This document shows, piece by piece, positions 1,081-55,923 of a stretch of DNA of 64,000 nucleotides. Both the position numbers and the translations under genes were made by a program. Origin of the DNA: Minisyncoccota bacterium (GTDB taxonomy: Bacteria; Patescibacteriota; Minisyncoccia; UBA6257; 2-01-FULL-56-20); the NCBI GenBank assembly GCA_041664245.1, contig JBAYLC010000004.1:16932-80931 (forward strand), given 5' to 3'. The notes under the pieces are model-generated. The model worked only from the letters and a program-made list of their open reading frames with translations. It searched no databases and was not told the DNA's origin. How positions within the stretch are numbered: position 1 is the first letter of the stretch; each line of letters starts with the position of its first letter.

Positions 1081-1632
1081 ATGTCTGGCAAGTTCAACTT
1101 AGTCATTGGCCTTGGTAATCCCGGCCCTGAATATAAAAAAACCTATCATAATATTGGCTTTCTTGCCACTGATTTTATTACCACTAAGTCCGGCTTCAAA
1201 AAATTCAGCAAAAGTTCGACTAAAAAATTTGAATTTTTAGAGGTTAAAAACACAATAATCTGCCGGCCCCTCACCTTTATGAATGACTCTGGCCAAGCTG
1301 TCGTCCTAATTTTGAAATATTTTAAAATAAAACCCGAAAATATTTTAGTTATTCACGATGATAGTGACTTAGAAATTGGAAAATACAAGCTTGTCTATGA
1401 TCGCGGTTCGGCCGGCCACAAAGGGATAATCTCCGTAATCAACCACCTCAAAACAAAAAAAATCTGGCGCCTCCGGATCGGAATTCGCCCAAAACCTAAT
1501 AATAACGACACAACTCCTCAAAAAAGAATAAAAGCGGAAAAATTTGTCCTTAAGGATATAAAGCCCACCGACCAAAAAATATTTGATCACATTTTCGGCG
1601 AAATTACCGAAAAAGTTATCGGGAATGAATAA
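1081..1632 (+). CDS. pth: Peptidyl-tRNA hydrolase
   Basis: LVIGLGNPGPEYKKTYHNIGF N-terminal signature and HDDSDLEIG motif typical of Pth. Confidence 0.9.
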   Translation: MSGKFNLVIGLGNPGPEYKKTYHNIGFLATDFITTKSGFKKFSKSSTKKFEFLEVKNTIICRPLTFMNDSGQAVVLILKYFKIKPENILVIHDDSDLEIGKYKLVYDRGSAGHKGIISVINHLKTKKIWRLRIGIRPKPNNNDTTPQKRIKAEKFVLKDIKPTDQKIFDHIFGEITEKVIGNE

Positions 1633-3104
1633 TCTCCATCAGGGTCCAATGTTATCTTGGTAAACTGAAAATCGACGCTTCCAAAAAAAGGGTCGGAGTT
1701 AAACACTTTTTCCAACTTCGCAGCATCTTCTCTTGTCTTTGATTCTCCGACAAGAGTAACTGGGGTATCAAAAGAGCTAAAACTAAATTTAGTTAAAACC
1801 GAATTATTAGTCACCAGTATACTATTAATTTTCTCAAACACTGCCGCCTTCGATAACTTCACGTCTCGAATTGGAGCGATTATATCTAAAGATTTATTAA
1901 AATCCTCGGCTTGTTGTTTTAAAAACTTAACCTCATTAAATTTCTGGCTATCACCATCACTAATTTTCGATTCCCGAATTAGATCATTATTTGTTTTAGT
2001 TAAAAAACCTATCGTCAAAGCGAAAACCAATAGCAACACCCCCATTGCGATTGGTGCCGCCGCAAGCCAAAATCTCAAAAAATTAAGAATCTGCCCTCGC
2101 CGATAATTATCTTCCGCCTCTACTCCCGAAAGATTTATTTCCCTATCATCTCGTCTGGAAGCAATTGATCTAATTCCGCCCCCCAAGGCCCCAAACCATT
2201 CCGAACTAACTGGCCGATCCAGTTTTAGTTCCAGATTTTTGACCCTTAGCGAAAAATTATCCTTAATTATTTTTGTAATCTCCTCTCCTAATCCAGGCGT
2301 TGCCAGAATAACATCCTCCACCGGCTCGCTCCAATGCTGTCCGTAAAAATTCAAAACTTGTCTTAAATTTCTAACCACGACTGTTCGAAATTCAGAAATT
2401 GAAATCTCTTTGCCTCCTCCTTTCAAATCTTGCCAAGAATTGAAATACTCAAAATACATTTGTCCCCGCTTTATAATAATAAAATCCAAACTTTCATTAT
2501 CCAAACTTAAGAGAATATAAGGCCGAAAACTATCTATTCCCAAAGATTGCTCACGGAAAATTCTTGTTAGCGAAAAAGATCTTGACTCAACCGCAATTAC
2601 TAAAAAACCGGCCTCTAGCAAGGCCTTGCTAAGTTCATCAACCATCGTTCGGCCAACAAACACCGAAAGAATATCAACTTTTTTGGCCGTTTCGTCGGTT
2701 CCAACCAGTTGCCACCCTGAATAATGCTCGCCAACCTGAGAAGGAGCTACCATTTGTAAATTAAGTTTAACCGCTTCCTTCAGGGCATGGCCCTCTAATT
2801 TCGGCAAACTGAAAATCTGAGTGTAAATATTAAGCGACCCCAACGAAACTACCACTAAAATCTTTTTTTGAGGCTGGTCTTTTTTAAAAATTTCCTTCTT
2901 TAATATAAAAAGGGACTCAACAAATTTATGATAATCCAAAATTACATTGGCCTTCATAATCCCCGGCGCCAATCTGATACTAGTCATCTGCCACTCCCGA
3001 TTATTTTTTAAATAAGCAAAACGCAAAGAAAAATCAGAAATCTCCAACCCGCCGATCATCGAGTTGCCCTTTAAAAAATTTAAAACTTTTCTCAAATATC
3101 TCAT
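1587..3104 (-). CDS. pilM: Type IV pilus assembly protein, PilM-like actin-fold domain fused to a C-terminal TM plus PilN-like region
   Basis: Roughly 500 aa with a TM segment (LAAAPIAMGVLLLVFALTIGF) two-thirds of the way in, followed by a PilN-like periplasmic segment. It sits at the head of the pilus locus. The ORF-track start at 3212 overlaps the upstream pilin gene; the Met at 3104 (MRYLRKV) avoids that overlap. Confidence 0.5.
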   Translation of the reverse strand: MRYLRKVLNFLKGNSMIGGLEISDFSLRFAYLKNNREWQMTSIRLAPGIMKANVILDYHKFVESLFILKKEIFKKDQPQKKILVVVSLGSLNIYTQIFSLPKLEGHALKEAVKLNLQMVAPSQVGEHYSGWQLVGTDETAKKVDILSVFVGRTMVDELSKALLEAGFLVIAVESRSFSLTRIFREQSLGIDSFRPYILLSLDNESLDFIIIKRGQMYFEYFNSWQDLKGGGKEISISEFRTVVVRNLRQVLNFYGQHWSEPVEDVILATPGLGEEITKIIKDNFSLRVKNLELKLDRPVSSEWFGALGGGIRSIASRRDDREINLSGVEAEDNYRRGQILNFLRFWLAAAPIAMGVLLLVFALTIGFLTKTNNDLIRESKISDGDSQKFNEVKFLKQQAEDFNKSLDIIAPIRDVKLSKAAVFEKINSILVTNNSVLTKFSFSSFDTPVTLVGESKTREDAAKLEKVFNSDPFFGSVDFQFTKITLDPDGDYSFPITFSVISPKM

Positions 3105-3141
3105 TTTAAAATTACTTTCACCTTTAAAATAACATAACTCC

Positions 3142-3675
3142 TTATAAGTGTATACAAGAACCCACGCACAAACACGTCCCAATAACTGGGTCGGAACACT
3201 CAGTTTTAACATCGCCTATCTTCAAACTAACCACCTCAACTTTGCTGCTATATTTATCCACCGACAACACCCCGAAGAGCACGTATGCTTTTCCGGCAAT
3301 TGTCGCCTCCGACCTGATCACAAACTGATTTTTATCAACAGAGTAATAATCATTAATACAAACTGGTGAGGTAGAAGTTGGCGGAGCAATTCGAATCTCA
3401 AGTGTCCCTTCGGTACTCAAATTGGGATTATACGTTGAAGCGCATCCTCCGTTACTCAACTCCTTGTTTCTATTTATCCTTAAAGCCGCATCCTGAACCC
3501 CCGCTAAAGCCAGCTGTGCCGCCTTATTAACATCCCGAGAACCGTAACTGGAATAAATAAAATTAAAAACTAAAAACGCCAAAGTAATTCCTACGATAAC
3601 GATCACTCCCCCAATCAAAAGTACCAACGACAACGCCGTTTGCCCGTTTTTTTGATTGAATTTATTAATCATCAT
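3142..3675 (-). CDS. Pilin-like or pseudopilin-like protein with a noncanonical leader
   Basis: N-terminus MMINKFNQKNGQTALSLVLLIGGVIVIVGITLAFLVF resembles a prepilin leader plus hydrophobic alpha1 helix, but lacks the Glu at +5. Cys-rich C-terminus. Confidence 0.4.
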   Translation of the reverse strand: MMINKFNQKNGQTALSLVLLIGGVIVIVGITLAFLVFNFIYSSYGSRDVNKAAQLALAGVQDAALRINRNKELSNGGCASTYNPNLSTEGTLEIRIAPPTSTSPVCINDYYSVDKNQFVIRSEATIAGKAYVLFGVLSVDKYSSKVEVVSLKIGDVKTECSDPVIGTCLCVGSCIHL

Positions 3676-3714
3676 TTTTTGCTTATTACAATGTACGTGC
3701 CCCGAGACGAGACA

Positions 3715-4743
3715 CTACGGACTCCAGTTCACCGTCACTTCATCAATTCTCGGCGTTAACGCCTGGTCTGGATCTGATTTCAATCTAACCAGATACTTAA
3801 AGTATCTCTTATTAGTGAAATCAGAAACGTTGTCAATCTTCACGCGGTATACTCCCGGCGAGTCAAAAACCGTAGCGTAAGAATTATAATAAGATGAAAT
3901 CGAGCCGTTCGGCCCCAAGAAAATCCACGGTCCGCTCGTTGAATTTGCCGCGGCTAGCTTAAAGCTCACACCAGTAGTAACTGGTAAATTTCCTTTCCAA
4001 ATAATCGAATTTATTTGAACCCCTTTAACTATGCCAGTATCAATAATAGCCGACTCCAGTGTTCCGTATGTTGAAGTTGCAAACCAATCCGTCGCCACTT
4101 TATAATCAGAGCCGTTTAATAAACACTCAGAGGGAGTGCCGCAACTGAAACTAATCCAGCCGGCAATATCATTCCAAGCGTAATTATAAAAATTCGATGG
4201 CGGTTCATCAATCCCAGTTGAAGAAGACGGGTATACGCCCACTCCCCAATAAACCGTAGTAGTTGCATGCTGAATTTCATTCCAAACCGTACTGCTTCCA
4301 GCAAAACTAATCCAACCGATTGCATCATTCCACGCCCAGCCAGAAACATGGCCCCGGCCATCATTTTTAACTCCCCAATTTCCAGCCGGACCAGTGCAAT
4401 TACTAGAACCCCCAGGCGGCAAAGTTGCGCAATTTAAAACAACTTCCCCAATTGAAGAACTCGCCCAGCCCTCTAAGTATTTTGAATGAACAATAACGTT
4501 ATGAGTACTATGAAAATCTATCCAGCCAATTGGACCGCTCCAACCCCAAGAATAATTTGAATTGGAATAAAGAGTGGAAGGGCTATAAAGAGAATTAACT
4601 GTTGGGTGAATATTGGTTCCCGGGTCTGGATTGGCCTTAGTAACCCTAAAACCGGTTACTAAAAAAACCGTCAAAATAACTCCGCCCAAAACAAAAACGC
4701 TGAATATTCCGACTGTTTTATTTCCTTTAAGATACTTTTTCAT
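3715..4743 (-). CDS. Membrane-anchored secreted protein with Trp-rich GWIxF repeats; candidate pilus tip or adhesin subunit
   Basis: N-terminal anchor MKKYLKGNKTVGIFSVFVLGGVILTVFLVTGF. Repeated motifs GWIDFHS, GWAWNDAIGWISFAGSS, YAWNDIAGWISFSCGT, GWSGPIGWIDF. Confidence 0.4.
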   Translation of the reverse strand: MKKYLKGNKTVGIFSVFVLGGVILTVFLVTGFRVTKANPDPGTNIHPTVNSLYSPSTLYSNSNYSWGWSGPIGWIDFHSTHNVIVHSKYLEGWASSSIGEVVLNCATLPPGGSSNCTGPAGNWGVKNDGRGHVSGWAWNDAIGWISFAGSSTVWNEIQHATTTVYWGVGVYPSSSTGIDEPPSNFYNYAWNDIAGWISFSCGTPSECLLNGSDYKVATDWFATSTYGTLESAIIDTGIVKGVQINSIIWKGNLPVTTGVSFKLAAANSTSGPWIFLGPNGSISSYYNSYATVFDSPGVYRVKIDNVSDFTNKRYFKYLVRLKSDPDQALTPRIDEVTVNWSP

Positions 4744-4748
4744 TTATA

Positions 4749-5426
4749 TTAAATTCCTAAAATTTTTATTGAACCGTTGGCATTTGAATAATCAATATTT
4801 GATGAGGTCGAAAAATTATTGGTGCTGGTCGCAACCAATAACTCGTTCGGCCCGCCCGACCAATCCGCTTGGTCAAAAATTTTACTCCGGAAACGAACTA
4901 AAAACGTCTGCAAACTGCTCGTTGTCGCCCCCGACCAGCCGTAAGTAACAGTCAAGCGTCGAATTGATGGATCAAACACCGTAAGGGCGGGGCAAGCGGA
5001 AACCGGATTAGGAGAAATAGTAGTCGTGGCAAAATTACCCAATGCGTTTCGGCAAACTGCCTCAATTTTAAAATATCGCGTGTAAGTTGTGGTGCCGTTT
5101 ATAATTGACTCCGGCCCCGACATCGCTTTAAAAGGAGAAGTACCGGTAGTCATCGTGGTTGCCATATAATAAAAATAATTAGTCGACGTTGCCATAATAT
5201 TATCAAGATTATGCCAGTCGCTTGCCGAAAAAACCTTTACCCTTTCAATCAAATCTAGTCCTAGTCCCACCGCAAACTTTGACTCATTAGCCGTTTTATT
5301 AGTTTTTAGAGTCGGAATAATAATCGCTGCCACCGCCCCGATTAGAAGAACCCCAACTGCTATTGCTATCAAAATCTCAATCAAAGATTGCCCCCGTCGA
5401 CCATAAATTTTAAACTTTTTTTTCAT
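4749..5426 (-). CDS. Minor pilin or pseudopilin
   Basis: Prepilin-type N-terminus KIYGRRGQSLIEILIAIAVGVLLIGAVAAII (Gly cleavage site, Glu5, hydrophobic helix). Confidence 0.55.
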   Translation of the reverse strand: MKKKFKIYGRRGQSLIEILIAIAVGVLLIGAVAAIIIPTLKTNKTANESKFAVGLGLDLIERVKVFSASDWHNLDNIMATSTNYFYYMATTMTTGTSPFKAMSGPESIINGTTTYTRYFKIEAVCRNALGNFATTTISPNPVSACPALTVFDPSIRRLTVTYGWSGATTSSLQTFLVRFRSKIFDQADWSGGPNELLVATSTNNFSTSSNIDYSNANGSIKILGI

Positions 5427-5463
5427 AATTACTGCATTAAAATATCACCTGACGAAACTCTAT

Positions 5464-6735
5464 TTATTGCGCTGTTCCAAAAACAATATTTGATATCGTA
5501 GAAGTATTTCCTGCGTCATCAATCGCTTTGATGGCAAAATAATATCTAGTGCCTATAACAAGACCCGACACAGTCCACGTCTCTGGGCTTCCCGCAATTT
5601 GAGGCAAAGACAAATCCATCTCTCGGGAATAAGAAGACCAATTACTGTCAAGAATTGAAATTGGCGAAGTGGAATACCTTAAATCATAAATCGTGGCGGT
5701 GCCGCTGTTACCATCGTCGCCAGGAGCAATCCAAGTGAGCAAAACCCTACCAGTAGAACCACCGCCTCCAGCTGCGAGTGAGGAGAAAAGTGAAGCAAGT
5801 GAAACATCAGTCTGGGTAGCGGCAAAACCACCAATATCGACATTGAGACTAGCTATCGCAGCTGGCCGAGTGGTATCCAAAGCCAAAGCTTCCGTGGTGG
5901 CCGAAGCCGGAGCTGATTGACCAGAGGCATTTCCTCTAGCATCATAAGCATCAACAGTATAAGTGTAAGTGGTAGATGGACTAAGACCAGAGTTAGAATA
6001 ACCAGGGCTAAAAACAGTAGCGATTGGAACTGGATTGCCATCTCGATAAATCCGATATCCAGCAACGCCGACATTATCGGTCGAGGCCGACCAAGAGAGA
6101 TCGATTCGAGAAGAAGATATAGGAACAGCCAAAAGGTTTGCGGGAATAGTAGGTGAAATATCATCAGGCAAAGGCGGAACATAAGGAGGCGTACTCGAAG
6201 AAGGGGTTGAAAAACTTACCACCCCTATTGGCGAAACCGAAATAGTTGACGAAACATTCGGATTGCTTTTCAGAAAAACCGAAAAAGTGGCCGACGCTGA
6301 AGATCCGACAAGAAATCCTTGAGATGCGGAAAATTTAATAAGAATTTTTTTATACTGCGACAAACAGCTAGAACTAGAATTATTAAAATTAGGGGAGGAA
6401 AAATTAATATTATCAGGCAATGTATATTTATTTTTAGGAGTATTAATATTTAGTTCATCATATAAACCGAAAAATAACTGGCTTGAACTGCAGAACGGAT
6501 TTCCCAACCCAACTTGCCAAGCCCATCCGCTATCCTGAAATTTAGATTTATCTCTTGCTGTATTTAAAAGCGAAACAATTTTTTCAACGGTTGCATTAAA
6601 TTCCTTAAGCTTATTTTGTGGTAAAAGATTTAAAAAAGTCATTCCGATTAAAATCGCCATTATCACCATCACAATAATAAGTTCTATTATTGTAAACCCA
6701 TTTTTATTATTATGTTTTTTAATATTTTTAACCAT
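5464..6735 (-). CDS. Large minor pilin with fibronectin type III domains
   Basis: Prepilin N-terminus KNGFTIIELIIVMVIMAILIG. C-terminal FN3-like segments (PTIPANLLAVPISSSRIDLSWSASTDNVGVAGYRIYRDG; TWIAPGDDGNSGTATIYDLRYS). Start taken at the Met at 6735; the track gives 6780. Confidence 0.6.
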   Translation of the reverse strand: MVKNIKKHNNKNGFTIIELIIVMVIMAILIGMTFLNLLPQNKLKEFNATVEKIVSLLNTARDKSKFQDSGWAWQVGLGNPFCSSSQLFFGLYDELNINTPKNKYTLPDNINFSSPNFNNSSSSCLSQYKKILIKFSASQGFLVGSSASATFSVFLKSNPNVSSTISVSPIGVVSFSTPSSSTPPYVPPLPDDISPTIPANLLAVPISSSRIDLSWSASTDNVGVAGYRIYRDGNPVPIATVFSPGYSNSGLSPSTTYTYTVDAYDARGNASGQSAPASATTEALALDTTRPAAIASLNVDIGGFAATQTDVSLASLFSSLAAGGGGSTGRVLLTWIAPGDDGNSGTATIYDLRYSTSPISILDSNWSSYSREMDLSLPQIAGSPETWTVSGLVIGTRYYFAIKAIDDAGNTSTISNIVFGTAQ

Positions 6736-6812
6736 ATTTATATGTTTAAATTTTTTATTTAAATTTCGTATTGGCATCATTTGATTATTAATAAAAAACT
6801 TTATCTATTTAT

Positions 6813-8024
6813 TTAAGAAAATTGCGCCGTCAATTGATAAATCGGAATTATTATCGAAAGAGCCACCAGCCCCACTAATAACCCCATGAATAAAAGCAAT
6901 ATTGGCTCCAAAAAAGAAACCAGGGATTTTATCGCCGACTCGGCTCTCGAGGCATAAAACTCAGAAAGCGTCTGTAAAAGATCTTCTAAATGTCCGGCCC
7001 TCTCCGATGCCGCAATCAAATTAGTAACCAGCTTCGGGAAAACTGTTTCTTTTCTGAAAGCCTCTCCTATTGTTAACCCTTTTGCCAAACCCTCTTCGCT
7101 GATTCGAAGCAAACTCGCCCGAAATTCAAGAACATTTACCGTCTCTGCTGCTATATTGAGCGATTGTATAATCGAAAGTCCCGCCTTCATCAACGAACTG
7201 GTTGTCGTTGCAAAACGTTGCACCGCCAACTCCCGATAAACCGTTTTGACTAAAGGTAATCGGCTAAACATTCGCTGGGCCAATTTCCGCCCCACATCGA
7301 ATTTCCAAAAAAACACTGCCGAAAAAACCACAATAATAATCAGGCCCGGAATAAATAGAAGCGCATGAGCATTTATAAAAAGCCCGATCCCAAACACCAC
7401 CCTTGAGAAAAGCGGCGGATTAATTCCTCCATCGGAAAAAACTTTCGCTATCTTAGGAAGTGCGAAAGTTACCAAAAAAATAAATATTGACATTGACGTC
7501 ACGAGCAAGATGACCGGATAGACCAGCGCCGATCGGATGCTATTCCGCAACGCTGCTTCCCTGCCAAGCGACACGCTTAATTCCTCAAATGTTTGCTGTA
7601 AATTTCCTGATGCCTCTGCGGCTTTAACTAAATTTATAAACACTGGCGAAAAAATTCTTGGATACCTTGCGAAAGCCGCATAAAATGGCTGGCCCCGCCC
7701 CAAATTGTCCCGAACCTCAAGTAAAAAGTTTTTCAGGGCTGGTTTATCAAAGTCAGAAATCAAAATATTTATTGCTGAAAGCAAATCAGTTCCCACTCGT
7801 AACATCAAAGAAAGATACCGAGTCAAAAAAATCTTGTCGGTTAAATTAATATTCCCAAAAATCCGCCGTGCCCCAAAACCCTCAGATTCTTTAATCGGCT
7901 TTACCGAAATCGGCCTCAGTTCTTTACCGGCTAGATATTGGAGAGCCTGAGTGAAATCATCGACTTCCAAATCCCCCTCGCTAATTTTTCCGCTTTTATC
8001 CGTTGCTAAATAATGAAAGAGCAT
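6813..8024 (-). CDS. pilC: Type IV pilus platform protein PilC (GspF family)
   Basis: 403 aa polytopic protein with duplicated GspF-type domains, located between the pilin genes and the PilB ATPase. Confidence 0.8.
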   Translation of the reverse strand: MLFHYLATDKSGKISEGDLEVDDFTQALQYLAGKELRPISVKPIKESEGFGARRIFGNINLTDKIFLTRYLSLMLRVGTDLLSAINILISDFDKPALKNFLLEVRDNLGRGQPFYAAFARYPRIFSPVFINLVKAAEASGNLQQTFEELSVSLGREAALRNSIRSALVYPVILLVTSMSIFIFLVTFALPKIAKVFSDGGINPPLFSRVVFGIGLFINAHALLFIPGLIIIVVFSAVFFWKFDVGRKLAQRMFSRLPLVKTVYRELAVQRFATTTSSLMKAGLSIIQSLNIAAETVNVLEFRASLLRISEEGLAKGLTIGEAFRKETVFPKLVTNLIAASERAGHLEDLLQTLSEFYASRAESAIKSLVSFLEPILLLFMGLLVGLVALSIIIPIYQLTAQFS

Positions 8025-8140
8025 AATAAAAAATCACCAATTCAAACAATTAATTCGAACCAACTCTTCTTAATTATAAACTTTTCTATAAAACTAGTCA
8101 CTAAAACATCCCCAAAGGGTAAATAGTAAAATTCTCAAAG

Positions 8141-9856
8141 CTATTCCCTAATGACCCGCAAAACCTCATCAATAGTGGTCATTGCTAATTCAACTTTTTT
8201 TAGTCCGTCCTCAAACATCGAAATCATTCCGTTTTCTCTGGCAACTTTGTGCAATTTTTCCAAATTAAAATCCGGGCTAATTATGGTTTTTTTCACCTCC
8301 TCACCAACATCTAAAACTTCATATATTCCCAGCCGTCCTCGATACCCGGTCATCCCACAACTTGAACATCCTTTTCCATGAAAAAAGTTTTTTGGTAGCT
8401 TAACCTTATTTGGGTCAAGATTTAGTTGTTCTAGTTGATTCATAATCACCTTGGTAATCTCTGGACTCGGCTCGTAAGAATATATACAGGCCTGGCAAAC
8501 CCTCCGCACTAAACGTTGGGCAATAATAACATTCAAAACCGAAACCACTAGAAAAGGCGGCACTTCTAAGTCAAAAAGTCGGGGTACCACCGTTGGCGCA
8601 TCGTTAGTGTGAAGTGAGGAAAGAAGTAAGTGGCCAGTCAAAGCCGCCTGCACTGCAATTCCCGCCGTCTCCGCGTCTCTAATCTCACCAACCATTATAA
8701 TATTCGGATCTTGCCTTAAAATTGCCCTGAGACCGGAAGCAAAAGTTATCCCCGCCTGAGTATTTATCTGGGTTTGATTAACATATCGCATATTGTATTC
8801 CACCGGATCTTCGACGGTAACTATATTCACCGTCGGTCTGTTTAAAATATCCATCATTGCGTAGAGCGTTGTTGATTTTCCTGATCCCGTTGGCCCGCAG
8901 CACAAAACCATTCCGTAAGCTTTCTTTAAGTTGTCGGCGACAATTTTCTCCATATCCGGAAACATTCCGATCTCGGTAAGCGATAGTGGTTTTTGAGCCG
9001 CCTCAAGAAGCCTCATCACAATTTTCTCTCCATAAAATGTTGGCAAAACCGAGACCCGAACATCTATCACCTGGCTGCCGACCTGATAATGAAAACGTCC
9101 GTCTTGTGGTTTATAATGTTCGTCAATCTTTAACCCAGACAAAATTTTAATTCTTGCCGTGAGAGCCGCGTGAATCGCTTTCGGCATCCGCATTATTTCA
9201 AAAAGAATTCCATCAATCCGATAGCGCACAATCGTTACATCTTCCATAATTTCCATATGAACATCCGACGCTCGCGAAGCAATCGCATACGACATCAAGT
9301 TGTCCACGATCGAAACTATCGGCAGAAGCGAGGCAGACTCCTCAACACTCTTTGCCTGTCCTCTCAGTGATTCCTGAACATTATTTTCAATTAATTTCTT
9401 AAAATCTTGCGCCGACTGTGAACCGTAAATAGAAAATCCCTTATTCAAATCACTACCCGTGGCAAAAAAGGGATTTATTTTTGCGTTCAAATGCTGGGAA
9501 AGAAATTTAATTGTCTCTAAATCGCTAGGATCGCTCATTGCCACATCGAAACTTCCGTCTGGCTCTTTCTTAAAAACAATAACTTCCCGCTGCCTAGCAG
9601 CACCCTCTTCGAGTAGCTTAATCGCATCCTTGTCTATCCCCTGAACCTCAAGGTTAGCCAAAGAAACCCCCAGCATCTCCGCTAAAAGATTATTCAAATA
9701 ACTTACTTCAACAATTTTTAGAGATATCAAAGAATCAAGCAATCCTTGATTTTTTCTTCTTGAATCTTCGTAGATGGTGTCGAATCGCTCGGCCGTAATC
9801 AAACCCTCCTGCACTAATCTGTTTTTCAACTGGGGAACTGGTATTGGTATTCTCAT
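8141..9856 (-). CDS. pilB: Type IV pilus assembly ATPase PilB (GspE family)
   Basis: Walker A GPTGSGKST, Asp and His boxes, tetracysteine motif (CQAC...CSSCGMTGYRGR), N-terminal GspII-like domain. Confidence 0.9.
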   Translation of the reverse strand: MRIPIPVPQLKNRLVQEGLITAERFDTIYEDSRRKNQGLLDSLISLKIVEVSYLNNLLAEMLGVSLANLEVQGIDKDAIKLLEEGAARQREVIVFKKEPDGSFDVAMSDPSDLETIKFLSQHLNAKINPFFATGSDLNKGFSIYGSQSAQDFKKLIENNVQESLRGQAKSVEESASLLPIVSIVDNLMSYAIASRASDVHMEIMEDVTIVRYRIDGILFEIMRMPKAIHAALTARIKILSGLKIDEHYKPQDGRFHYQVGSQVIDVRVSVLPTFYGEKIVMRLLEAAQKPLSLTEIGMFPDMEKIVADNLKKAYGMVLCCGPTGSGKSTTLYAMMDILNRPTVNIVTVEDPVEYNMRYVNQTQINTQAGITFASGLRAILRQDPNIIMVGEIRDAETAGIAVQAALTGHLLLSSLHTNDAPTVVPRLFDLEVPPFLVVSVLNVIIAQRLVRRVCQACIYSYEPSPEITKVIMNQLEQLNLDPNKVKLPKNFFHGKGCSSCGMTGYRGRLGIYEVLDVGEEVKKTIISPDFNLEKLHKVARENGMISMFEDGLKKVELAMTTIDEVLRVIRE

Positions 9857-9871
9857 AAAATTATTTAAAAA

Positions 9872-10543
9872 TTACTTTCCCAAAAAAAGTCCGATAAAAT
9901 CTCCCAGAGATAATTGCCCCCAAACATATTCCAATCCAAAAATCGGAAGCAACCAAATCTTTACTATGATAGCAAAAATTGCTATCGGCAACCAAAAATA
10001 AAAAAGCGGCAGCCGTCCCTTGGAAAAAATCGTGTAGACCACGGAAAACAAAACTCCAAAAATCAGAATAGCCGCCCAAAAAAACAAAAATCCCGGATAC
10101 CCTGAGAGAAAAGTCCCGAGCGCGATAAGTTCAACTTCTTCGTTTTCAAAAAATCTATTACCAAATCTTTTATTCAAAAATTTCGCCAACCGGCTTACTA
10201 AAATAGAAGCCAGAAAAGCGACTATCCAAAAAATAAAAAAATGGACAAATACATATGACAAAAAATAAGAGATCGGGGCATAAGGCGGCAAAAGGCCTCT
10301 GCTAAGCGGATTACTCTCCCAAACTTGATACTGCTTGTAAGATATATAAACATTAACTGCTACCACAATCACAAACAAAATCAACCACAAAATCTTTAAA
10401 TACTTCTTTACCGTTTCTCGGGAAAATTTTCCTTCTCTTTTTGAGTCCAAAAATCGCCGGCCCCAAAAAATCTGTGCCGCAAAAAGCAAAATCAAAGCCA
10501 CTAAATTAAAATATTGAGCTACTGCAAACATTCTCAAAATCAA
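9872..10543 (-). CDS. pilD: Prepilin peptidase (A24 family)
   Basis: 223 aa polytopic membrane protein immediately downstream of pilA and adjacent to pilB. Size and position are typical of PilD; the assignment rests on context and topology. Confidence 0.65.
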   Translation of the reverse strand: MILRMFAVAQYFNLVALILLFAAQIFWGRRFLDSKREGKFSRETVKKYLKILWLILFVIVVAVNVYISYKQYQVWESNPLSRGLLPPYAPISYFLSYVFVHFFIFWIVAFLASILVSRLAKFLNKRFGNRFFENEEVELIALGTFLSGYPGFLFFWAAILIFGVLFSVVYTIFSKGRLPLFYFWLPIAIFAIIVKIWLLPIFGLEYVWGQLSLGDFIGLFLGK

Positions 10544-10556
10544 TTATAACACAAAA

Positions 10557-10576
10557 AGCGCCCTAAGGCGCTTTTT
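10557..10576 (-). terminator. Intrinsic terminator hairpin between pilA and pilD; probably a partial, attenuating terminator
   Basis: AGCGCC-CTAA-GGCGCT perfect hairpin flanked by an A-tract and a T-tract (aaaaAGCGCCctaaGGCGCTtttt). pilD starts right after it on the same strand. Confidence 0.55.
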
Positions 10577-10601
10577 GTTGAATAATAATTAATACTCTTT
10601 T

Positions 10602-11222
10602 CTAGAGAGCTAGACCAGGATTAGTCCCAACCTCATACAAAGTAACGCTGTTCCCCCCATCATTAACCGAACTACTCGAAAACTTCTGGCTTTCAATTCT
10701 AGTATTCACCTCATATGTGTTATTCGTTCCAGTCATATATGCGTAATAGAAATCATCACTCGTCGTAGTTACGGTAGGACCAAAAGTATTTGGCACAACA
10801 GGGTCAACTGGTAACTGCGGTAGCGGCGAACCAGTACTAATTTTAGTAAAATCAATCGGAATCCATCCGGTTCCATTAATCGCCCGAGAAGTAGTCGCTC
10901 CAACAGTTGCAGCCCCAGCCCCTAACGACGGGAAACGAAACCCGCACTGATTACCAGCAGTACCAAGCGTAGAAGAAGCGTCCAAAGAAGTGAAGCACCA
11001 TGTCGTACTTGTTCCAAGATACGCCGCCGGCACATCAGAGAGATAAAGCGCAATAGCGCTATTCAAAGTCGACAAATCCGAAAACCTGGTCGTATCCCGT
11101 GACTGCCTTAGCAACTCGGCCGGATTTAAAGTCAAAATAACGACCGTCGCGAGAATGGCAATAATACCAATAACAATCAGAAGTTCAATAAGAGTAAAAC
11201 CCTTAACTTGCTTATTTTGCAT
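10602..11222 (-). CDS. pilA: Major type IV pilin
   Basis: Canonical KGFTLIELLIVIGIIAILATVVILTL prepilin leader and alpha1 helix. Own promoter upstream and hairpin downstream. Confidence 0.8.
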   Translation of the reverse strand: MQNKQVKGFTLIELLIVIGIIAILATVVILTLNPAELLRQSRDTTRFSDLSTLNSAIALYLSDVPAAYLGTSTTWCFTSLDASSTLGTAGNQCGFRFPSLGAGAATVGATTSRAINGTGWIPIDFTKISTGSPLPQLPVDPVVPNTFGPTVTTTSDDFYYAYMTGTNNTYEVNTRIESQKFSSSSVNDGGNSVTLYEVGTNPGLAL

Positions 11223-11264
11223 TGAATTTTTTCTTTAAATTCGACCTTTTTATAACGTAAAATC

Positions 11265-11273
11265 ATTATAGCA
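11265..11273 (-). promoter_or_regulatory. Extended -10 promoter element (TGcTATAAT) for pilA
   Basis: The minus strand reads ...tttgTGcTATAATgattttacg... about 45 nt upstream of the pilA ATG, with an A/T-rich region further upstream. Confidence 0.5.
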
Positions 11274-11403
11274 CAAAGAAAATAGGCTGATTAAAAAATT
11301 GTGGATAACTCCCGATTTCCTATGAACGCAGTGAATAAAGGAAATCAAGGACCCCGCCCGCTGGTGAGATATTCATTTTCCCCATTAGCGATTTGCCATC
11401 TAG

Positions 11404-11475
11404 TGCGTGTGGAAGGAATCGAACCTTCGACCTCTGTCTTATCAGGACAGCGTTCTACCACTGAACTACACACGC
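11404..11475 (-). tRNA. tRNA-Ile (anticodon GAT)
   Basis: Minus-strand cloverleaf GCGTGTGTAGTTCAGTGGTAGAACGCTGTCCTGATAAGACAGAGGTCGAAGGTTCGATTCCTTCCACACGCA. Anticodon loop CTGATAA. No encoded CCA. Confidence 0.85.
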
Positions 11476-11499
11476 GTTCTTTTCTACCTTCCACCTTTG

Positions 11500-11571
11500 T
11501 GCGCGGTAGAAGGATCGAACTTCTGACCTCTTCGATGTCAACGAAGCGCTCTACCACTGAGCTAACCGCGC
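11500..11571 (-). tRNA. tRNA-Val (anticodon GAC)
   Basis: Minus-strand GCGCGGTTAGCTCAGTGGTAGAGCGCTTCGTTGACATCGAAGAGGTCAGAAGTTCGATCCTTCTACCGCGCA. Anticodon loop TTGACAT. Confidence 0.85.
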
Positions 11572-11681
11572 ATCCCTAAGCTTAAACTAAACAAACCCAT
11601 CCCTACCTAATAAAATCAATTTTCTAACAAAAAACGCCAACCCGAAACCAGCTACCATTAAAACCCAAAATCGAAAAAAAA

Positions 11682-11888
11682 TCAAAACCTTGGCTCAATT
11701 TGAAGTCGCTTAGCTTTTTCGATATCAAAACTGACCGACCCCCCTCCGCCGCTATTCAAATTATTCGCTATCGAAAACCCATTAGCCACCACCCTCACTG
11801 CCCAAACAAAATAAGCAACCACGATTACAAGTAAAACAACCGAAAGAATAGCTAATATTTTTTCGTAATGTTCTTTCAAAAAATTCAT
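11682..11888 (-). CDS. Small single-pass membrane protein, unknown function
   Basis: 68 aa with one TM helix (ILAILSVVLLVIVVAYFVWAV) and a Gly-rich segment. Directly downstream of the PilO/PilN-like gene. Confidence 0.35.
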   Translation of the reverse strand: MNFLKEHYEKILAILSVVLLVIVVAYFVWAVRVVANGFSIANNLNSGGGGSVSFDIEKAKRLQIEPRF

Positions 11889-11906
11889 TGTTTTTTCTTT
11901 TTAAAA

Positions 11907-12443
11907 CTACTCCTTAAAATAAACCAATCCCTTTGCGTTAAGAACATAATCATTTGAAGTTTTTGCTATATCCGCGCTTTCAAAGCTCATTAAAAACCTA
12001 GGTGATGCAGTTTCTAAATATCTTAGAAAAGCGATTAAATTAGATAGAGGACCAGTTACACTAAGCGAGAATCCAGCGTGTCCAAAGGAAGTTGGAGTCG
12101 GTTTTACCTCTACCCCTTGTTGAAAATCAAAAGTCACTCCCACTCCATAATTTGTTCCCTGATTACTTAATACTCGCGATAAATCGGAAATCAACTGATC
12201 TTTCGCTGGCACTAAGGCGCCAATTCCTTTTATATACGCGGCGGCACTATCATTGCCATTTTTTAAATCCGCCAGCACCCCATTGATATTAGAGTTTTCA
12301 TAAACCAAAAATCTTTGATTGGAAATATCCTTAGAAAGTTTCGCAATATAACTAGCGGAAAAATAAAGAATCACTCCGGAAACCAAAAACAGCCCCAAAA
12401 TAATCAACGCTTTATTCCTAAATTGTTTTTTAAAATTCTCCAT
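11907..12443 (-). CDS. Membrane-anchored periplasmic protein, possibly a PilO/PilN-like pilus alignment subunit
   Basis: 178 aa with an N-terminal TM anchor (ALIILGLFLVSGVILYF) followed by a coiled-coil-like region. Adjacent to the pilus locus. Weak assignment. Confidence 0.3.
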   Translation of the reverse strand: MENFKKQFRNKALIILGLFLVSGVILYFSASYIAKLSKDISNQRFLVYENSNINGVLADLKNGNDSAAAYIKGIGALVPAKDQLISDLSRVLSNQGTNYGVGVTFDFQQGVEVKPTPTSFGHAGFSLSVTGPLSNLIAFLRYLETASPRFLMSFESADIAKTSNDYVLNAKGLVYFKE

Positions 12444-12521
12444 TACTTTTTTAATTATAACATAAAACTAATCTACCCGAACCAATGAGACCAAAAAATT
12501 GACTTCGATTTTCCCTCCGTT

Positions 12522-13580
12522 ATGCTTATAAAAATGGACGAAAAAATTTATTACAATGCCATAAACATTGCCCTTGGCAGTGACTACCGAAAATTAGGAA
12601 AGTTGATAGAAAAGTCCGGCTGTTGGGAAATTGCTTGGGAAAATTTAGGTGTCGCCGAAAAAAATAAAATCAATCCGGAAAAACTTTGGGAGAAACTTCT
12701 AAGGTCAAAAATTGAGCTGACCTTAATAAACGAAAAAAAATACCCCTCCTTACTTCGCGAAATATCCTTTCCGCCTTTTGGAATTTATTCTATCGGCAAT
12801 TTTTCGGCTCTAAATCAAAAATATAAAATAAGCATCGTCGGTACCAGAAAGGCCACCGAGCAAGGCAAGGAAATCGCTCGAGAATTCGCCAGAAATCTCG
12901 GGCAAAACAATTTCGCCATAATAAGCGGTTTGGCTTTAGGAATTGACGCCGCTGCTCACTCCGGCGCCCTTGACGCTAACGCTCCCACCATCGCCGTCCT
13001 CGCCAACGGCCTTGATCATTTCTATCCCAGTTATAATTCTAAATTGGCTGAAAAAATAATCTCAAGCAATGGACTAATAGTTTCAGAATATCCAATAGGA
13101 AGCCCAACCCTCCCTTATCGATTTATAGAAAGAAATAGAATCATCAGCGGCCTTTCCGCCGGCACCCTTGTTATTGAAGCCCCCGAAGGGTCTGGCTCGC
13201 TCGCCACCACTAGATTTGCCCTTGATCAAAATCGGGAAATTTTTGTTACTCCCGGACCTCTAAAACATCCAAATTTCTCCGGCTCCCATAAATTAATCCG
13301 CCTTGGCGCCATCCTAGTTACCTCTCCTGAAGAAATTATTGAGTCTCTCGCCCCAGAAATTCTCGAGGGTAAAAACAGCCCACTAAACCAGCTAAATCTA
13401 TTAAATAGCCTAGAAGAAAAGAGAATATACGAAATTTTAAAAAACAGCGCTAAACCAATCACAGTTGACAAAATTATTGAACTATCTAATCTTAATGCCA
13501 AAATCATCAATCAAACTCTTACCTTCCTGACTATAAAGAATATAATCAGTGAAACTGAGGCTGGGTTTGTCGTTCTATGA
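12522..13580 (+). CDS. dprA: DNA processing protein A (Smf), competence-associated
   Basis: Rossmann-like DprA core (IVGTRKATEQG, ISGLALGIDAAAHSGAL, EAPEGSGSLATTRFALDQNREIF) plus a C-terminal winged-helix. The stop overlaps the topA start (ATGA). Confidence 0.85.
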   Translation: MLIKMDEKIYYNAINIALGSDYRKLGKLIEKSGCWEIAWENLGVAEKNKINPEKLWEKLLRSKIELTLINEKKYPSLLREISFPPFGIYSIGNFSALNQKYKISIVGTRKATEQGKEIAREFARNLGQNNFAIISGLALGIDAAAHSGALDANAPTIAVLANGLDHFYPSYNSKLAEKIISSNGLIVSEYPIGSPTLPYRFIERNRIISGLSAGTLVIEAPEGSGSLATTRFALDQNREIFVTPGPLKHPNFSGSHKLIRLGAILVTSPEEIIESLAPEILEGKNSPLNQLNLLNSLEEKRIYEILKNSAKPITVDKIIELSNLNAKIINQTLTFLTIKNIISETEAGFVVL

Positions 13581-15655
13581 ATATGAGTACAAAGCTAATT
13601 ATTGTTGAATCCCCCACTAAGGCCAAAACAATCTCTAAATTTGTCGGTTCTGGCTATAAAGTCGAATCTTCTTTCGGTCATGTTCGCGACCTTCCGAAAA
13701 GCAAGCTCGGCATTGATGTCGAAAATAATTTTGAGCCCCAATATGTCATTCCCCGGAAAATCCAACCTCGAGTCACCGCCCTTAAAAAAATCGCGGCGAA
13801 AGCTGATGAAGTGATACTAGCCACTGACGAAGACCGCGAAGGAGAAGCTATTGCCTGGCACCTCGTTACCGCCCTCAAATTAAAAAATGACTCTGACAAA
13901 CCGATAAAGCGGATTGTTTTCCATGAAATTACAAAAACCGCTATTAAAAACGCTTTAGACAATCCCCGCACAATTTTCCAAAATCTTGTTAATGCCCAAC
14001 AAGCCCGCCGCGTTCTTGACCGTCTTGTCGGTTATCAACTCTCGCCGTTCCTCTGGAAAAAAGTGGTCCGCGGCCTCTCCGCCGGCCGGGTTCAATCGGC
14101 CGCTATGCGCTTAATCGCCGCTCGCGAAGAAGAAATAAATAAATTCAAAAGTTATGAATACTGGACTATCGAAGCAAAACTCGAAACTGAAAAAAGGGAA
14201 ATTCTTGAAGCGTCTCTTTCAAAAATCGGGGACGAATCCGTTCCAAAACTAGGCATTGGAACTGAAACTGAGGCCCAAAAAATTCTTTCCGATCTGAAAG
14301 ACGCAAATTATAAAATAGAAAATATCGAACGGAATGAAACCAAAAAAAATCCCTATCCCCCTTTTATAACCAGCACCCTTCAACAAACAGCCTCTCGCCA
14401 CTTTGGTTTTTCCGCCAAACGAACAATGATGATTGCCCAATCTCTCTATGAAGGCGGCCACATCACCTACATGCGCACCGACTCCGTTAATCTCTCCAAA
14501 GAAGCCCTCGTGGCTTCAACTGAATGGATCAAAGCTCACTTACCAGAAGAATATCAAATTCCTCCGAAAAATTACGAAAACAAATCCCGGTTAGCCCAAG
14601 AAGCTCACGAAGCTATCCGGCCAACCGATCCCAACCTAGCGCCGGAAGAATGGGATGATTCTCGAAAATCAAAACTCGACAAAGACCAAGAGAAACTCTA
14701 CAGCCTCATCTGGCGCCGGTTCATCGCCTCTCAACTTCCCCACGCTAAACTCGACGCCACTAAAATAGAGGTTAGAGCCACTGCCGGAAAAAATAATTAT
14801 ATTCTAGCGGCTAACGGTAATATTCTCCGTTTTGACGGCTTTCTAAAAATCTGGCCAATTAAAATGGAAGAGAAAATTCTTCCCGAGCTTACAAAAGACG
14901 ACCCCGTCAGCCTCATTGAAGTAACGCCAACTCAGCACTTCACCGAACCGCCGCCGCGTTACAACGAAGCCAGTCTGATTAAAACTCTGGAAAAATACGG
15001 CATCGGCCGCCCATCAACCTACGCTCCGATTATTTCGGTTATTCAAAATCGCAACTACGTCGAAAAAATTCAAGGCCGCCTCCAACCCACCGAGATTGGC
15101 CTTTTAGTTGACAAGGTTCTCAAAGAAAATTTTCCGGAAATTGTTGATCTTGATTTCACCGCCAAAATGGAAAACGAACTCGATGAAATCGCTGAAGATA
15201 AAAAACAGTGGCAGGAAGTCATCAGGGAATTTTACGAACCTTTTTCTGTCCACCTTAAACAAAAATATGAAGAAGTTTCCAAAAAAGAAATCGCCGAGGA
15301 AAAAACCGACCAGAAATGCGAACTTTGCGGAAAAGATATGATCATTAAATTCGGCCGCTTCGGAAAATTTATGGCTTGCTCCGGATTTCCGGAATGCAAG
15401 AACACGAAAAATTTAAAGGATCCACCGAAACCAATCGGCCTCAAATGCCCCAAATGCGGCGAAGGCGACGTAATTGAAAGGCGGGTAAGCCGCAAAGGCC
15501 GCGCCCGCGGCAAAATCTTTTGGGGCTGTAATCGCTATCCCGATTGCGACTACGCCTCTTGGACCAACCCTTTGAATCCGGAAGAGAAAAAACCCTTAGA
15601 AATCGAAGCCCTAGAGCCCAAAACAACTGCCACAATCGAAGAAGACTCTGAATAA
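13577..15655 (+). CDS. topA: DNA topoisomerase I
   Basis: Toprim domain (LIIVESPTKAKTI...ILATDEDREGEAIAWHL), catalytic region (YMRTDS) and C-terminal Zn-ribbon repeats (CELCGKDM...CSGFPECKN; CPKCGEG...GCNRYPDC). Confidence 0.95.
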   Translation: MNMSTKLIIVESPTKAKTISKFVGSGYKVESSFGHVRDLPKSKLGIDVENNFEPQYVIPRKIQPRVTALKKIAAKADEVILATDEDREGEAIAWHLVTALKLKNDSDKPIKRIVFHEITKTAIKNALDNPRTIFQNLVNAQQARRVLDRLVGYQLSPFLWKKVVRGLSAGRVQSAAMRLIAAREEEINKFKSYEYWTIEAKLETEKREILEASLSKIGDESVPKLGIGTETEAQKILSDLKDANYKIENIERNETKKNPYPPFITSTLQQTASRHFGFSAKRTMMIAQSLYEGGHITYMRTDSVNLSKEALVASTEWIKAHLPEEYQIPPKNYENKSRLAQEAHEAIRPTDPNLAPEEWDDSRKSKLDKDQEKLYSLIWRRFIASQLPHAKLDATKIEVRATAGKNNYILAANGNILRFDGFLKIWPIKMEEKILPELTKDDPVSLIEVTPTQHFTEPPPRYNEASLIKTLEKYGIGRPSTYAPIISVIQNRNYVEKIQGRLQPTEIGLLVDKVLKENFPEIVDLDFTAKMENELDEIAEDKKQWQEVIREFYEPFSVHLKQKYEEVSKKEIAEEKTDQKCELCGKDMIIKFGRFGKFMACSGFPECKNTKNLKDPPKPIGLKCPKCGEGDVIERRVSRKGRARGKIFWGCNRYPDCDYASWTNPLNPEEKKPLEIEALEPKTTATIEEDSE

Positions 15656-25588: not shown

Positions 25589-28500
25589 CTAAGAACCAGC
25601 TGCGTAAGAACCAGAGAACAACTGAATCGGAATACCCACGCCAGCGATTCTTACATTAACCGTACCGCCAGATTCCGCCGTAGTGTAAGTAGCATCAGTC
25701 ACCGCATTAAGGATTGCTGAAAGTCCTTGAGCCACACCGCTTACAGCAACGGCTGTATTGCTCAAAGTATTAGCCCTAAGCGTAAATGTCTTTGTAGTAC
25801 CAGCGCTGACAATATAGTTATTGAAGTCAAACGAAACTGAAGTTGTGGTAGTTGCAGACTGAGTCACATTAGTGCCGGCAGTCGGATTAAACAACGTAAA
25901 TGTGGCAGGTAACGAAAGGCTATTAGCCGAACCGCCAATAGTAACCACAAATGACTGAAGTTTAACCGATCCAAGTGGGTCCGCCGTGAAGCTAATAGTG
26001 GCCAACTCATCAGTTGTAGCCTTAGCTCTACCAGACGTAACTCCAATCGGAGTCGCCGATACTGTAAGTTTACCTCTCACAATCGTCTGAGCATTACCAG
26101 TCGCAGCAGTGAGAGTAACCGTCGAACTGTTATTCGAGGTACTACCACGAGCCACCACTACTTCTGCCGCTGTATCAAGAAGCGGGTCAGTAGAAGTTGA
26201 CGCAGCAAGCTTAAACACATGAGTAGTGTTGTCAGACGCACCGCTCGAGCTATAGTCAGACACATCGCCCTTCAGAACCAAGGTAATTGATCCAGATTTC
26301 GGAACTACGATCGGATTCTGGAAACTAAACAGGCGGTAATAACCCACACCAGCCACATCTGAGCCCTCGGTATTGTTGCTTGTTGTCGGTTCGCCACCCG
26401 TAGCCAACAATGTATTCAAATCCCTTGAATCGTACAACTTCAAACTAGCAAAGGAAGCCTTAACCGAAGGAGAAGCAACCGTCTGGAAAAGATAAAGTTG
26501 AGAAACCTTTATATCTTCAATATTGGTTGTTTCGGAGAAACGGTAAGCGGCCAAGGTATTTCCAGTTGAACCCATCACAATCTGGTTAGCTGACGGAGCA
26601 GTGGAGTCCAATGTAACAGTCAATGTTGACTGTCCAGCCACAACCACACTTTGTCCGGTTCTTGCTGTGCAAGAAACCGCAGCATAGGTCGTCGCGCCAG
26701 ATCCCGTGCAACTCGCAAGTGTTGTAGCCGCCGTATGTGTACCAGCCACCGCAGATGAAAGTATATCAACATAAACATCCACTATCTTTGTTTGTCCAGC
26801 TGGAATATTTAGTTGACCGGTAAAATTATAGGTAGCAGCCGATAAAGTCGGTTGAACTGTCCCAAATTGAGTATTACCAACCATCAGCTTAAGGTTTTGG
26901 CTGCTAGTCGTAAGGCCACCCAATGTAACCCCAATACTCATGAGGTTCACCCCTTCCGCCGTTGAAGCCGCTATTGAGTAAGAACCAATTTTAGCGTTAG
27001 TTGTGCCAGCTGAATACGTTTGAGTTCCTACTGCGCTATTTCTAGCTGTAGTAGCTGAGCTAGTAACTCTAGTTAACACGCTGCCAGTTGCCGCGCCGCT
27101 TGATGCCGTCGCGCTTGATGTCTGGCCACGCAAGTTGCTTGACCCAGTCAACACCTTTGCCACAATCGTCGTGAAATCAGCTGTGGTTTGGATATCTCCT
27201 CGTAAGGTAAGCACCCGAGTTGTATTCGCCGGAACAATGTAGCTAATCGGAGAAGAACTCTTACCAAAACAATTTGTAGCCGTTGAAGATGCATAAGTTG
27301 CAGCACTATCAGTACAATCCACTGCTAACACTGTCGCCAAATTGGAAATTGTGCTCCCAACTTGAAAACCAGCATCATCAACTAAACTAACGTTCTTGAT
27401 TTGGCTATTTACTCCGAGAGTCGCTCCCGTGAAAGTCAAAGAAAATCCGAGCCACTGAACCTTAACTGGTTCGCCAGCCGCATAAATCTTGTATTTCAAG
27501 AGAGGTGTTGCCGATCCGCCGGCAACAATATTCCCAGTCGGTGTATCAGAAGCCAAAGTGGTTGTAAGTTGTCCAGGTTGAATAGTCACCTGCATTGAAC
27601 TTGCCGAACCGCCGTTGATAGTCACCGAAACCGGTACTCCATACTGGCTATCAACTCCCCAAACATCATACGAGTTCAAGAGGTTGAAAGTGAAATTGTA
27701 GTTTGGACTACCCGCAATGTCGGCGTAGACTTGCAAATTGCTGTTTCCGGTAGAAATAACCGCCGGAGCAGAACTGAAATCAAAAAACGCCACTCCATCA
27801 GCCGGAACCATCGCTAAGGTTTGGCCAACTTGAGTACCGTTCACAAAAAGCTTCACATTCTTAATGTCGCTCTTTGTCGCCGAACCAGTCACTTTAAAAG
27901 TAATTCCTTTAAGGTTAACTGGACTGTTCGTAGCTGTAATCGTCCACTGCGAAATCATTTGATTCTGATCGCCAGCATAAACTGATGTCTGCGGTGTACC
28001 CGAAGACACAGTTAAACTCGCAATTGACGGATTTGAGACCGTAGTCGCTGTGAAAACATTTCCACTCAAGGGAAAAGCCCCCACTGGAGTAACAGCCACG
28101 TTATTGCTGTCAACTGCCGTTATATCGGTAACCGCCATCAAACCAAAAGAGATAGTGTTTCCATCCGTAACTGTTCCTGGGTCAATAGCTAATTCAACAT
28201 TCCTGGTCTGACCGGCATTAATGCCTAATCCCAAACCATTGAATGTAATCACGCCACCAGAAAGCGAACTATACTGGGCGATTACCTTACCGTTTTCGAT
28301 TAGGTATGCCGCAGAAATACCACTATCCGAAACTATACCCAACTTCTTGAATTTCAAGTCGTTGACTGTAATTCCGCCAGCATTGCCAGCTGTAAGAGCA
28401 ACTCCTAAAACAGGCAATCGCGCCGAGGAAGCAATGAAAGAACTAACTGCAGGATTCTTCGAAGAGAGTCCTACTGAAAGACCAGAAACCGGAACCGGAT

Positions 28501-55323: not shown

Positions 55324-55344
55324 AGTGTGATTCTAAAAGGGTAA

Positions 55345-55392: not shown

Positions 55393-55400
55393 AATAAATA

Positions 55401-55841: not shown

Positions 55842-55885
55842 AAAAAAATCAATTCCCTTCAACCCGACTTCTAATTTTTCTTTAT

Positions 55886-55910: not shown

Positions 55911-55923
55911 TAAATACTTATCA

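Follow-up and report, generated by a model that had tools for sequence, protein, structure and literature searches.

Within a 64,000-nucleotide stretch of DNA (in the following, the window) from a metagenome-assembled genome (MAG) placed in Candidatus Paceibacterota (Parcubacteria, Candidate Phyla Radiation, CPR), positions 1587 to 12443 carry 13 genes, arranged head to tail on the minus strand and separated from pilA to pilMN by gaps of 5 to 116 bp, which with high probability constitute a conserved, secretin-less gene cluster for a type IV pilus (T4aP-like) with a tip set of minor pilins and an adhesin. An elaborate set of minor pilins and tip proteins in a type IV pilus locus had already been proposed in a sequence-only reading of the same DNA, the open reading frames of which were all found at their coordinates on the minus strand; the assignment is carried by the profile matches of the core proteins, by class III signals, and by synteny in 24 independent related loci. 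For host finding and holding and for DNA uptake in the ultrasmall CPR bacteria, type IV pili are the leading candidates; to our knowledge, functional work on them in CPR has so far been limited to Saccharibacteria. The present locus defines a conserved Paceibacteria/Parcubacteria version, among the parts of which are a carrier minor pilin with a swapped, fused or split module, a putatively priming pilin decorated with FN3 domains, and a 223-aa membrane protein, here called X. The Trp-repeat protein of the locus is called Trp342, and p438, p225, p177, p178 and p68 are named after their size in amino acids.

Gene order and core machinery

The related loci were reached in three ways, namely through an X homolog (L001, L002), through homologs of the Trp-repeat protein and independently of X (L003-L005), and through an X-based genome scan (L013-L032); they were annotated by phmmer with the window proteins as queries. 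Since L018 and L001 are the same contig, they amount to 24 independent loci, which come from Parcubacteria, Liptonbacteria, Harrisonbacteria and Paceibacterota MAGs. Their gene order is pilA (1 to 4 copies), X, pilB, pilC, the p438 ortholog, p225, Trp342, p177, pilMN, Pth and LepB, with X following the last pilA and preceding pilB wherever a locus covers this junction, and with the Pth-LepB pair following pilMN in nearly all related loci. Loss of the pilins in relatives and failure of the pilin-like N-termini in a class III signal check had been named beforehand as results that would speak against a pilus locus; the locus is kept, pilins included, in the 24 loci, and the signals are present. 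In the window, pth (plus strand) and pilMN (minus strand) converge, and their 3' ends share 46 bp (1587-1632).

PilB, the GspE-type assembly ATPase with an MshEN N-domain (8141-9856, minus strand), matches T2SSE (PF00437, 5e-119), PF05157 (9.8e-9) and TIGR02538 (2.9e-154), and PilC, the GspF-type platform protein (6813-8024, minus strand), matches T2SSF in two stretches (PF00482, 1.3e-44) as well as TIGR02120 (1.4e-79); both had been named correctly before. On TIGR02538, PilB reaches 514.8 bits, under the equivalog cut-off of 675, and it reaches 498.3 bits on the gspE model. The third core gene encodes a PilM-PilN fusion of GspL-like architecture (1587-3104, minus strand). Its open reading frame (541 aa) is open up to position 3212, but the likely start is the Met at 3104, because the orthologs (502-517 aa) align from there. 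For this fusion, which had likewise been proposed earlier, the PilM half holds: it matches TIGR01175 (pilM, 4e-8), a profile of five orthologs finds PilM structures in the PDB (3jc8, 6.8e-14; 2ych, 9.5e-12), and PF11104 (PilM_2) is present on the L005 ortholog. The PilN half is less firm, with PF05137 at 0.005, below the cut-off, and PilN of 3jc8 at an E-value of 0.65.

Upstream of pilA lie two small genes that had been overlooked. The first, p178 (11907-12443, minus strand), encodes a PilO/GspM-like bitopic protein, the matches of which are weak but concordant and full-length (NF040576 GspM, 0.02; T2SSM, 0.044; PilO in the PDB, 3jc8_O, 0.12 for residues 18-158; T2SSM_b, 0.18), and it is restricted to the sub-clade that carries the dprA block treated below. 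The second, p68 (11682-11888, minus strand), encodes a single-pass membrane protein without a Pfam match, which is a conserved partner of p178 with orthologs beside p178 in 6 independent related loci. The matches to PilN and to PilO/GspM (0.02-0.18) are thus sub-threshold, yet they are collinear and have the right topology. Between p68 and pilA, the two embedded tRNA genes seen earlier were called by both ARAGORN and Rfam as tRNA-Ile(GAT) and tRNA-Val(GAC) (11403-11475 and 11499-11571, minus strand). The pair occurs at the equivalent site in L001, L013, L016, L017, L019 and L027, and because it is kept at the same place in relatives, it was rejected as an integration site.

Parts of this machinery resemble type II secretion, such that a pseudopilus exporting proteins, with no pilus at the surface, has to be weighed: PilC has its highest score with GspF, the minor pilins match GspH models, the PilM-PilN fusion has the architecture of GspL, and p178 weakly matches GspM. 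Such a system is nonetheless highly improbable. PilB scores slightly better as pilB than as gspE, the major pilin has 206 aa and occurs in 1 to 4 tandem copies in relatives, and adhesin modules of tip type are sensible only on an exposed filament. Furthermore, neither a secretin nor another outer-membrane component was found in 75.4 kb of the contig, i.e., the window plus extra DNA at both ends, and CPR bacteria are reported to be without PilQ and apparently without an envelope of Gram-negative type (PMC6744442).

Pilins and the candidate tip adhesin

A motif scan of all window open reading frames gives canonical class III signals in exactly three of them, PilA, p438 and p225, for each of which PF07963 (N_methyl) also scores above the cut-off, plus one variant without Glu5, p177; the pilin-type genes are therefore four, and not at least five as had been counted. 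PilA (10602-11222, minus strand), the candidate for the major pilin as proposed before, has 206 aa, comes first among the pilins encoded in the operon, and begins with the signal VKG/FTLIE (the slash marks the cleavage site here and below); it matches N_methyl at 2.8e-8 (33.5 bits against a cut-off of 21.2) and TIGR02532 at 8e-7. Just after pilA and before the gene of X, a hairpin with a 12-bp stem is followed by TATAAT (10551-10578, minus strand; -22.5 kcal/mol, z -5.3). This arrangement recurs in L001/L018 and in L024 and is absent in most other relatives; it fits a high expression of pilA, with the assembly genes expressed separately or by read-through. A promoter scan gave counts equal to the shuffled expectation and was not used.

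The 438-aa pilin with FN3 domains was recovered as such: p438 (5464-6780, minus strand) consists of a GspH/FimU-like pilin module (N_methyl, 3.2e-8; TIGR01708 gspH, 3.7e-8), a Pro-rich linker, and two FN3 domains (fn3 in two stretches, 4.3e-16), and thus combines a prepilin motif and an extra domain foreign to type IV pilins in one polypeptide, as modular pilins do. Its orthologs, from 19 distinct loci, have 155-317 aa (one is cut by a contig end) and stop where the pilin module stops, which marks the FN3 pair as added in this genome. The second minor pilin, p225 (4749-5426, minus strand), belongs to the PilV/PilW class and carries the signal RRG/QSLIE; it passes N_methyl with 21.7 bits against 21.2, consistent with its earlier description as a pseudopilin, and matches TIGR02523 (PilV) at 1.4e-6, below the cut-off.

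The fourth protein, p177 (3142-3675, minus strand), had been described as a leaderless variant, but it possesses a leader of 11 residues that ends in a nearly invariant Gly. Its orthologs (n=15) share this Gly, a hydrophobic helix of about 22 residues and an A-x-A-G-x-x-D-A motif, in which G59 and D62 are invariant, and the gene is found without exception between those of the adhesin and of pilMN. By motif and position, p177 is a candidate for a GspK/PilX-like minor pilin; profile searches gave no family match, and a PilX_N identity has no support from Pfam or the PDB.

The Trp-repeat secreted protein of the sequence-only reading is real. Trp342 (3715-4743, minus strand) has an N-terminal signal or anchor and three repeats of the form W-x-W-N-D-x-x-G-W-I-x-F, and its AlphaFold2 model (predicted local distance difference test, pLDDT, 82) adds to a beta region formed by the Trp repeats a C-terminal jelly-roll like those of discoidin, CBM32 and the Eph ligand-binding domain. 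A Foldseek search against the PDB gave nothing significant, and there is no Pfam match and no beta-propeller of PilY1 (PF05567). The homologs (n=119) are all unannotated; the majority start with a Sec-type signal ending in A-x-A/ATNI, but 11 of the 119 start instead with a prepilin signal of the type G/QSLIE. In one such protein (P0069, 470 aa), residues 5-207 align to p225 (5e-29) and residues 203-470 to Trp342 (3e-61), which means that p225 and Trp342, adjacent in the window, are one protein in some relatives. An explanation of the split form as a frameshift artefact was rejected, since most of the homologs, and likewise most of the syntenic loci, have the split form with a separate signal peptide.

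Further exchanges are found on the same carrier. The p225 ortholog of L026 has a LamG-like insert, and those of L028 and L032 are fused to the C-terminal jelly-roll alone, which makes different modules on one carrier pilin across species a clear case of module swapping. The p225-type pilins with swapped modules were located at L026:14287-15624, L028:6676-7797, L032:13951-15069 and L005:8401-9813, and they carry either a LamG-like insert (identified by eye), only the jelly-roll, or the complete unit of Trp repeats and jelly-roll. Since 11 of the 119 homologs are fused with the adjacent minor pilin, Trp342 is probably an adhesin of the pilus tip, and the tip modules are probably sticky and sugar-binding.

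The encoded machinery and the fusions of p225 and Trp342 type are direct observations, and they suggest the following course. PilB, PilC, PilMN and the PilO-like protein would drive the extension of a filament with a shaft made of PilA, whereas p438, p225 and p177 would prime assembly and stay at the pilus tip, which would display FN3 and lectin-like modules binding a surface, most plausibly host-cell glycans. The module of Trp342, fused to p225 in some relatives, would be secreted separately here and is presumably docked on p225. Tip location, docking and glycan binding are proposed after the precedents of FimU-PilVWX-PilY1 and of modular pilins (PMC8179133) and after the work on Saccharibacteria (PMC11623550).

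Some points weigh against reading the cluster as a pilus with a tip adhesin set. The system as seen is incomplete, for no prepilin peptidase, PilT, ComEC or secretin is encoded in the 75.4 kb searched; the PilN half of the fusion matches weakly, and the assignments of p177, p178 and this PilN half, all tentative, rest on sub-threshold matches, motifs and position; and the proposed tip location and glycan binding draw on analogy and on the fusions. The lack of a secretin is in line with reports on CPR, where type IV pili and competence genes are widespread, PilQ is absent, and PilD is widespread (PMC6744442).

Among known systems, the locus is most usefully compared with the two type IV pili of Nanosynbacter lyticus TM7x (PMC11623550) and with the pilus and competence set of CPR (PMC6744442). 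PilB, PilC, proteins of PilM/N/O type and the lack of a secretin are common to all, as are a small major pilin accompanied by several minor pilins like type II secretion pseudopilins, recombination or competence genes nearby, and large accessory modules (jelly-roll, lectin-like) on tip candidates with non-canonical signals. In Saccharibacteria, the lectin-like minor pilins mediate host binding (PMC11623550). There are, however, differences: PilM and PilN are fused here, X is encoded where a recognisable PilD would be expected (the first TM7x locus has PilD), PilT is lacking from the locus, and the adhesin, the Trp-repeat region of which is without annotated relatives, is secreted by itself with a Sec-type signal or joined to a PilV/W-like pilin. 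Modular pilins are widespread, with FN3 (IPR003961) among the frequent architectures (PMC8179133). Modular in the manner of Streptococcus sanguinis PilB and PilC (PMC8179133) are p438, with its pilin module, linker and two FN3 domains, and the p225-type pilins of relatives, with their LamG-like or jelly-roll modules, whereas in this genome pilin carrier and lectin-like module are encoded apart, the latter as a secreted protein of its own. With PilY1 and FimU-PilVWX of Pseudomonas and Myxococcus, the locus shares a large Sec-exported non-pilin encoded among about four minor pilins and expected at the tip for adhesion; Trp342 lacks the beta-propeller (it has no Pfam match and another predicted fold), such that the likeness is a functional analogy only.

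The literature thus already contains CPR type IV pili with competence genes, modular pilins with FN3, and tip pilins of lectin-like type in Patescibacteria. The Paceibacteria version is a lineage-specific variant, which is specific in the PilM-PilN fusion, in the conserved X, and in the adhesin family that is either split or fused; in the literature searched, no description was found of the fusion, of X in the PilD slot, or of the split-or-fused family with Trp-repeats and jelly-roll.

Protein X in the position of pilD

The gene between pilA and pilB (9872-10543, minus strand) encodes X, a polytopic membrane protein of 219-223 aa that had been taken for PilD. This call could not be upheld: Pfam and NCBIfam searches with X returned no A24 model, an hhalign comparison of its family with an alignment of seven annotated A24 peptidases (Escherichia coli GspO and six plasmid genes) gave a probability of 0.5% (P 0.12), and neither sequence nor fold searches of the PDB matched A24 or FlaK-type peptidases, although the model of X reaches a pLDDT of just 68. 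As profile and profile-profile searches fail and a conserved Asp dyad is lacking, PilD was rejected as an identity for X, which without an A24 match has to be filed as an uncharacterised membrane protein.

The family of X comprises 588 representatives at E<=1e-3, all of them "hypothetical" and none with a Pfam domain; longer members contain only low-complexity loop inserts and no domain fusions. Across 40 diverse members, the motifs LLPP, RFFExEE, G(Y/H)P and LWLP are conserved, N124, P150 and W184 are invariant, and E136 is nearly so, whereas these members show no invariant Asp, no conserved Asp pair and no GxGD motif, nor any match to PF01478 even at E<=10. An SLGD tail, resembling GxGD, is confined to the 13 closest homologs. 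X is described as a conserved, lineage-specific core component, in which an A24 prepilin peptidase cannot be demonstrated.

The canonical Gly-1/Glu+5 signals of the pilins imply that a prepilin peptidase exists, and most likely it is encoded elsewhere in the genome. That X itself is the prepilin peptidase of this lineage, either as an extremely divergent A24 member or as a new class using the conserved ExEE cluster at the cytoplasmic face, is an unlikely alternative with some circumstantial points in its favour. In every locus spanning the junction, X occupies the classical slot of pilD, 15 bp ahead of pilB, and it shares with A24 peptidases (PilD, GspO, FlaK) the polytopic topology, a size of about 200 aa, the position beside pilA, pilB and pilC, and an acidic cluster predicted to face the cytoplasm. 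No A24 gene was found nearby: a purpose-built A24 hidden Markov model (E<=10) gave none in the window or in the 24 related loci, PF01478 is not listed in the Pfam tables of L001-5, L033 and L034, and the extra end DNA showed none either. A greedy hhalign alignment of X and A24, which is not significant, is collinear with similar spacing and places LLPP on LLPD, ExEE on GxGD, and LWLP on PFGP; E136 of X is nearly invariant. However, the same alignment sets a non-conserved residue of X opposite the catalytic Asp1 of A24, and by the positive-inside rule LLPP of X would face outward, unlike the cytoplasmic LLPD of A24 peptidases. Together with the failed searches, the missing Asp dyad and GxGD, and the restriction of the SLGD tail to the closest homologs, this argues against a peptidase, as does the report of canonical PilD as widespread in CPR (PMC6744442), according to which the gene may lie elsewhere in this genome.

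It is equally improbable that the X family (at least 588 sequence clusters, encoded between pilA and pilB in pilus operons of Paceibacteria type) is a core component of type IV pili that has escaped recognition and that, in the furthest version of this reading, would replace PilD in the lineage as a non-A24 prepilin peptidase using ExEE. If X were needed for piliation or processed prepilins, it would be a new component or peptidase class in a well-studied machine; if not, the locus is a neat, unexceptional case of a machinery already known.

Competence, dprA-topA and other features of the window

Adjoining the pilus genes, DprA (12522-13580, plus strand; PF02481, 2.5e-74) is divergent from p178 across 78 bp and overlaps by 4 bp with the gene of topoisomerase I (TopA, 13577-15655, plus strand; PF01131, 2.1e-124, with Toprim and Zn-ribbon domains). 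The order ParA-ParB-RelA-TopA-DprA-p178-p68-(tRNA-Ile/Val) directly before pilA is found in the window, in L001 (=L018), L013, L016, L017, L019 and L027; in L023 and L025, most genes of the dprA block are nearby but rearranged, and in L003-5, L021, L022 and L026, all with the same pilus operon, the block is absent within 10 kb. The physical link of dprA-topA to the pilus genes claimed earlier is thus correct as an adjacency, which is kept in seven independent loci; dprA lies, however, in a housekeeping block (ParA-ParB-RelA-TopA-DprA ... Pth-LepB) and is missing within 10 kb in other clades, so the arrangement is synteny and no evidence of functional coupling. In three of the loci without the block, the pilin genes are closely preceded by that of a single-domain response regulator (PF00072, 122-134 aa; L003:4110-4490, L004:4010-4378, L005:2061-2465), with no histidine kinase in view.

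These findings bear on a dedicated competence pilus, which would capture DNA for processing by DprA and TopA and which we consider possible but doubtful. In its favour are the short distance of dprA from the start of p178 and the recurrence of this adjacency in six of the related loci, the view that CPR bacteria scavenge DNA, with Saccharibacteria naturally competent (PMC6744442, PMC10633639), and the presence of recA/recX in the second pilus locus of TM7x (PMC11623550). Against this, TM7x mutants in that second pilus retained wild-type competence (PMC11623550), the adjacency belongs to the housekeeping block just described and is lost in other clades with the same operon, and the modules of the minor pilins are of adhesin or lectin type and not of known DNA-binding types. 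Moreover, DprA of the natural transformation set is present, while ComEC and ComEA were not found among the window open reading frames or in the flanks. The dprA-topA pair is known to be widespread and independent of pili, and the PilT retraction ATPase is needed for twitching and for most DNA-uptake pili; the window and each related locus contain only one PilB-like open reading frame, so PilT is not among them. The earlier statement that the window holds no PilQ secretin, PilT or ComEC extends to the additional DNA at both ends.

Taken as a competence and/or host-attachment pilus with an elaborate tip, the locus is borne out in its pilus and tip set, and host attachment is supported by the lectin-like and FN3 modules on, or fused to, the minor pilins; competence and adhesion are not separated from each other by these findings, and the pilus may also take up DNA.

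Outside the pilus locus, the window, which covers about 206.6-270.6 kb of a 272,072-bp contig, has a GC content of about 0.38-0.47, and its GC skew is negative in every 2-kb bin from 1 to 64000 (-0.08 to -0.32); with minus-strand genes in the majority, this indicates that the whole window lies on one replichore. Three tandem T4SS_pilin genes (PF18895) are situated at 55401-56835 (minus strand), adjoined by a Gly/Asn-rich secreted protein of 345 aa (56857-57894) and by an unannotated membrane protein of 501 aa (53818-55323). The cluster at 53818-57894 resembles the Patescibacteria cluster with type IV secretion-type pilins (compare PMC12102498) and would add to the window another filament system, unrelated to the first. 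Another protein of 345 aa (37026-38063, minus strand) begins with a polytopic membrane domain, continues with a pilin-like helix (RQDARAVSDLRQIQNGLELYFS...) and ends in a small globular part containing Cys; it shows neither a class III cleavage motif nor a Pfam match. At 25589-28942 (minus strand), a secreted protein of 1117 aa starts with a PG_binding_1 domain, which is followed by a (Pro-Asn)n linker and by long beta repeats rich in Thr and Ser, and is probably a cell-surface or S-layer-like protein.

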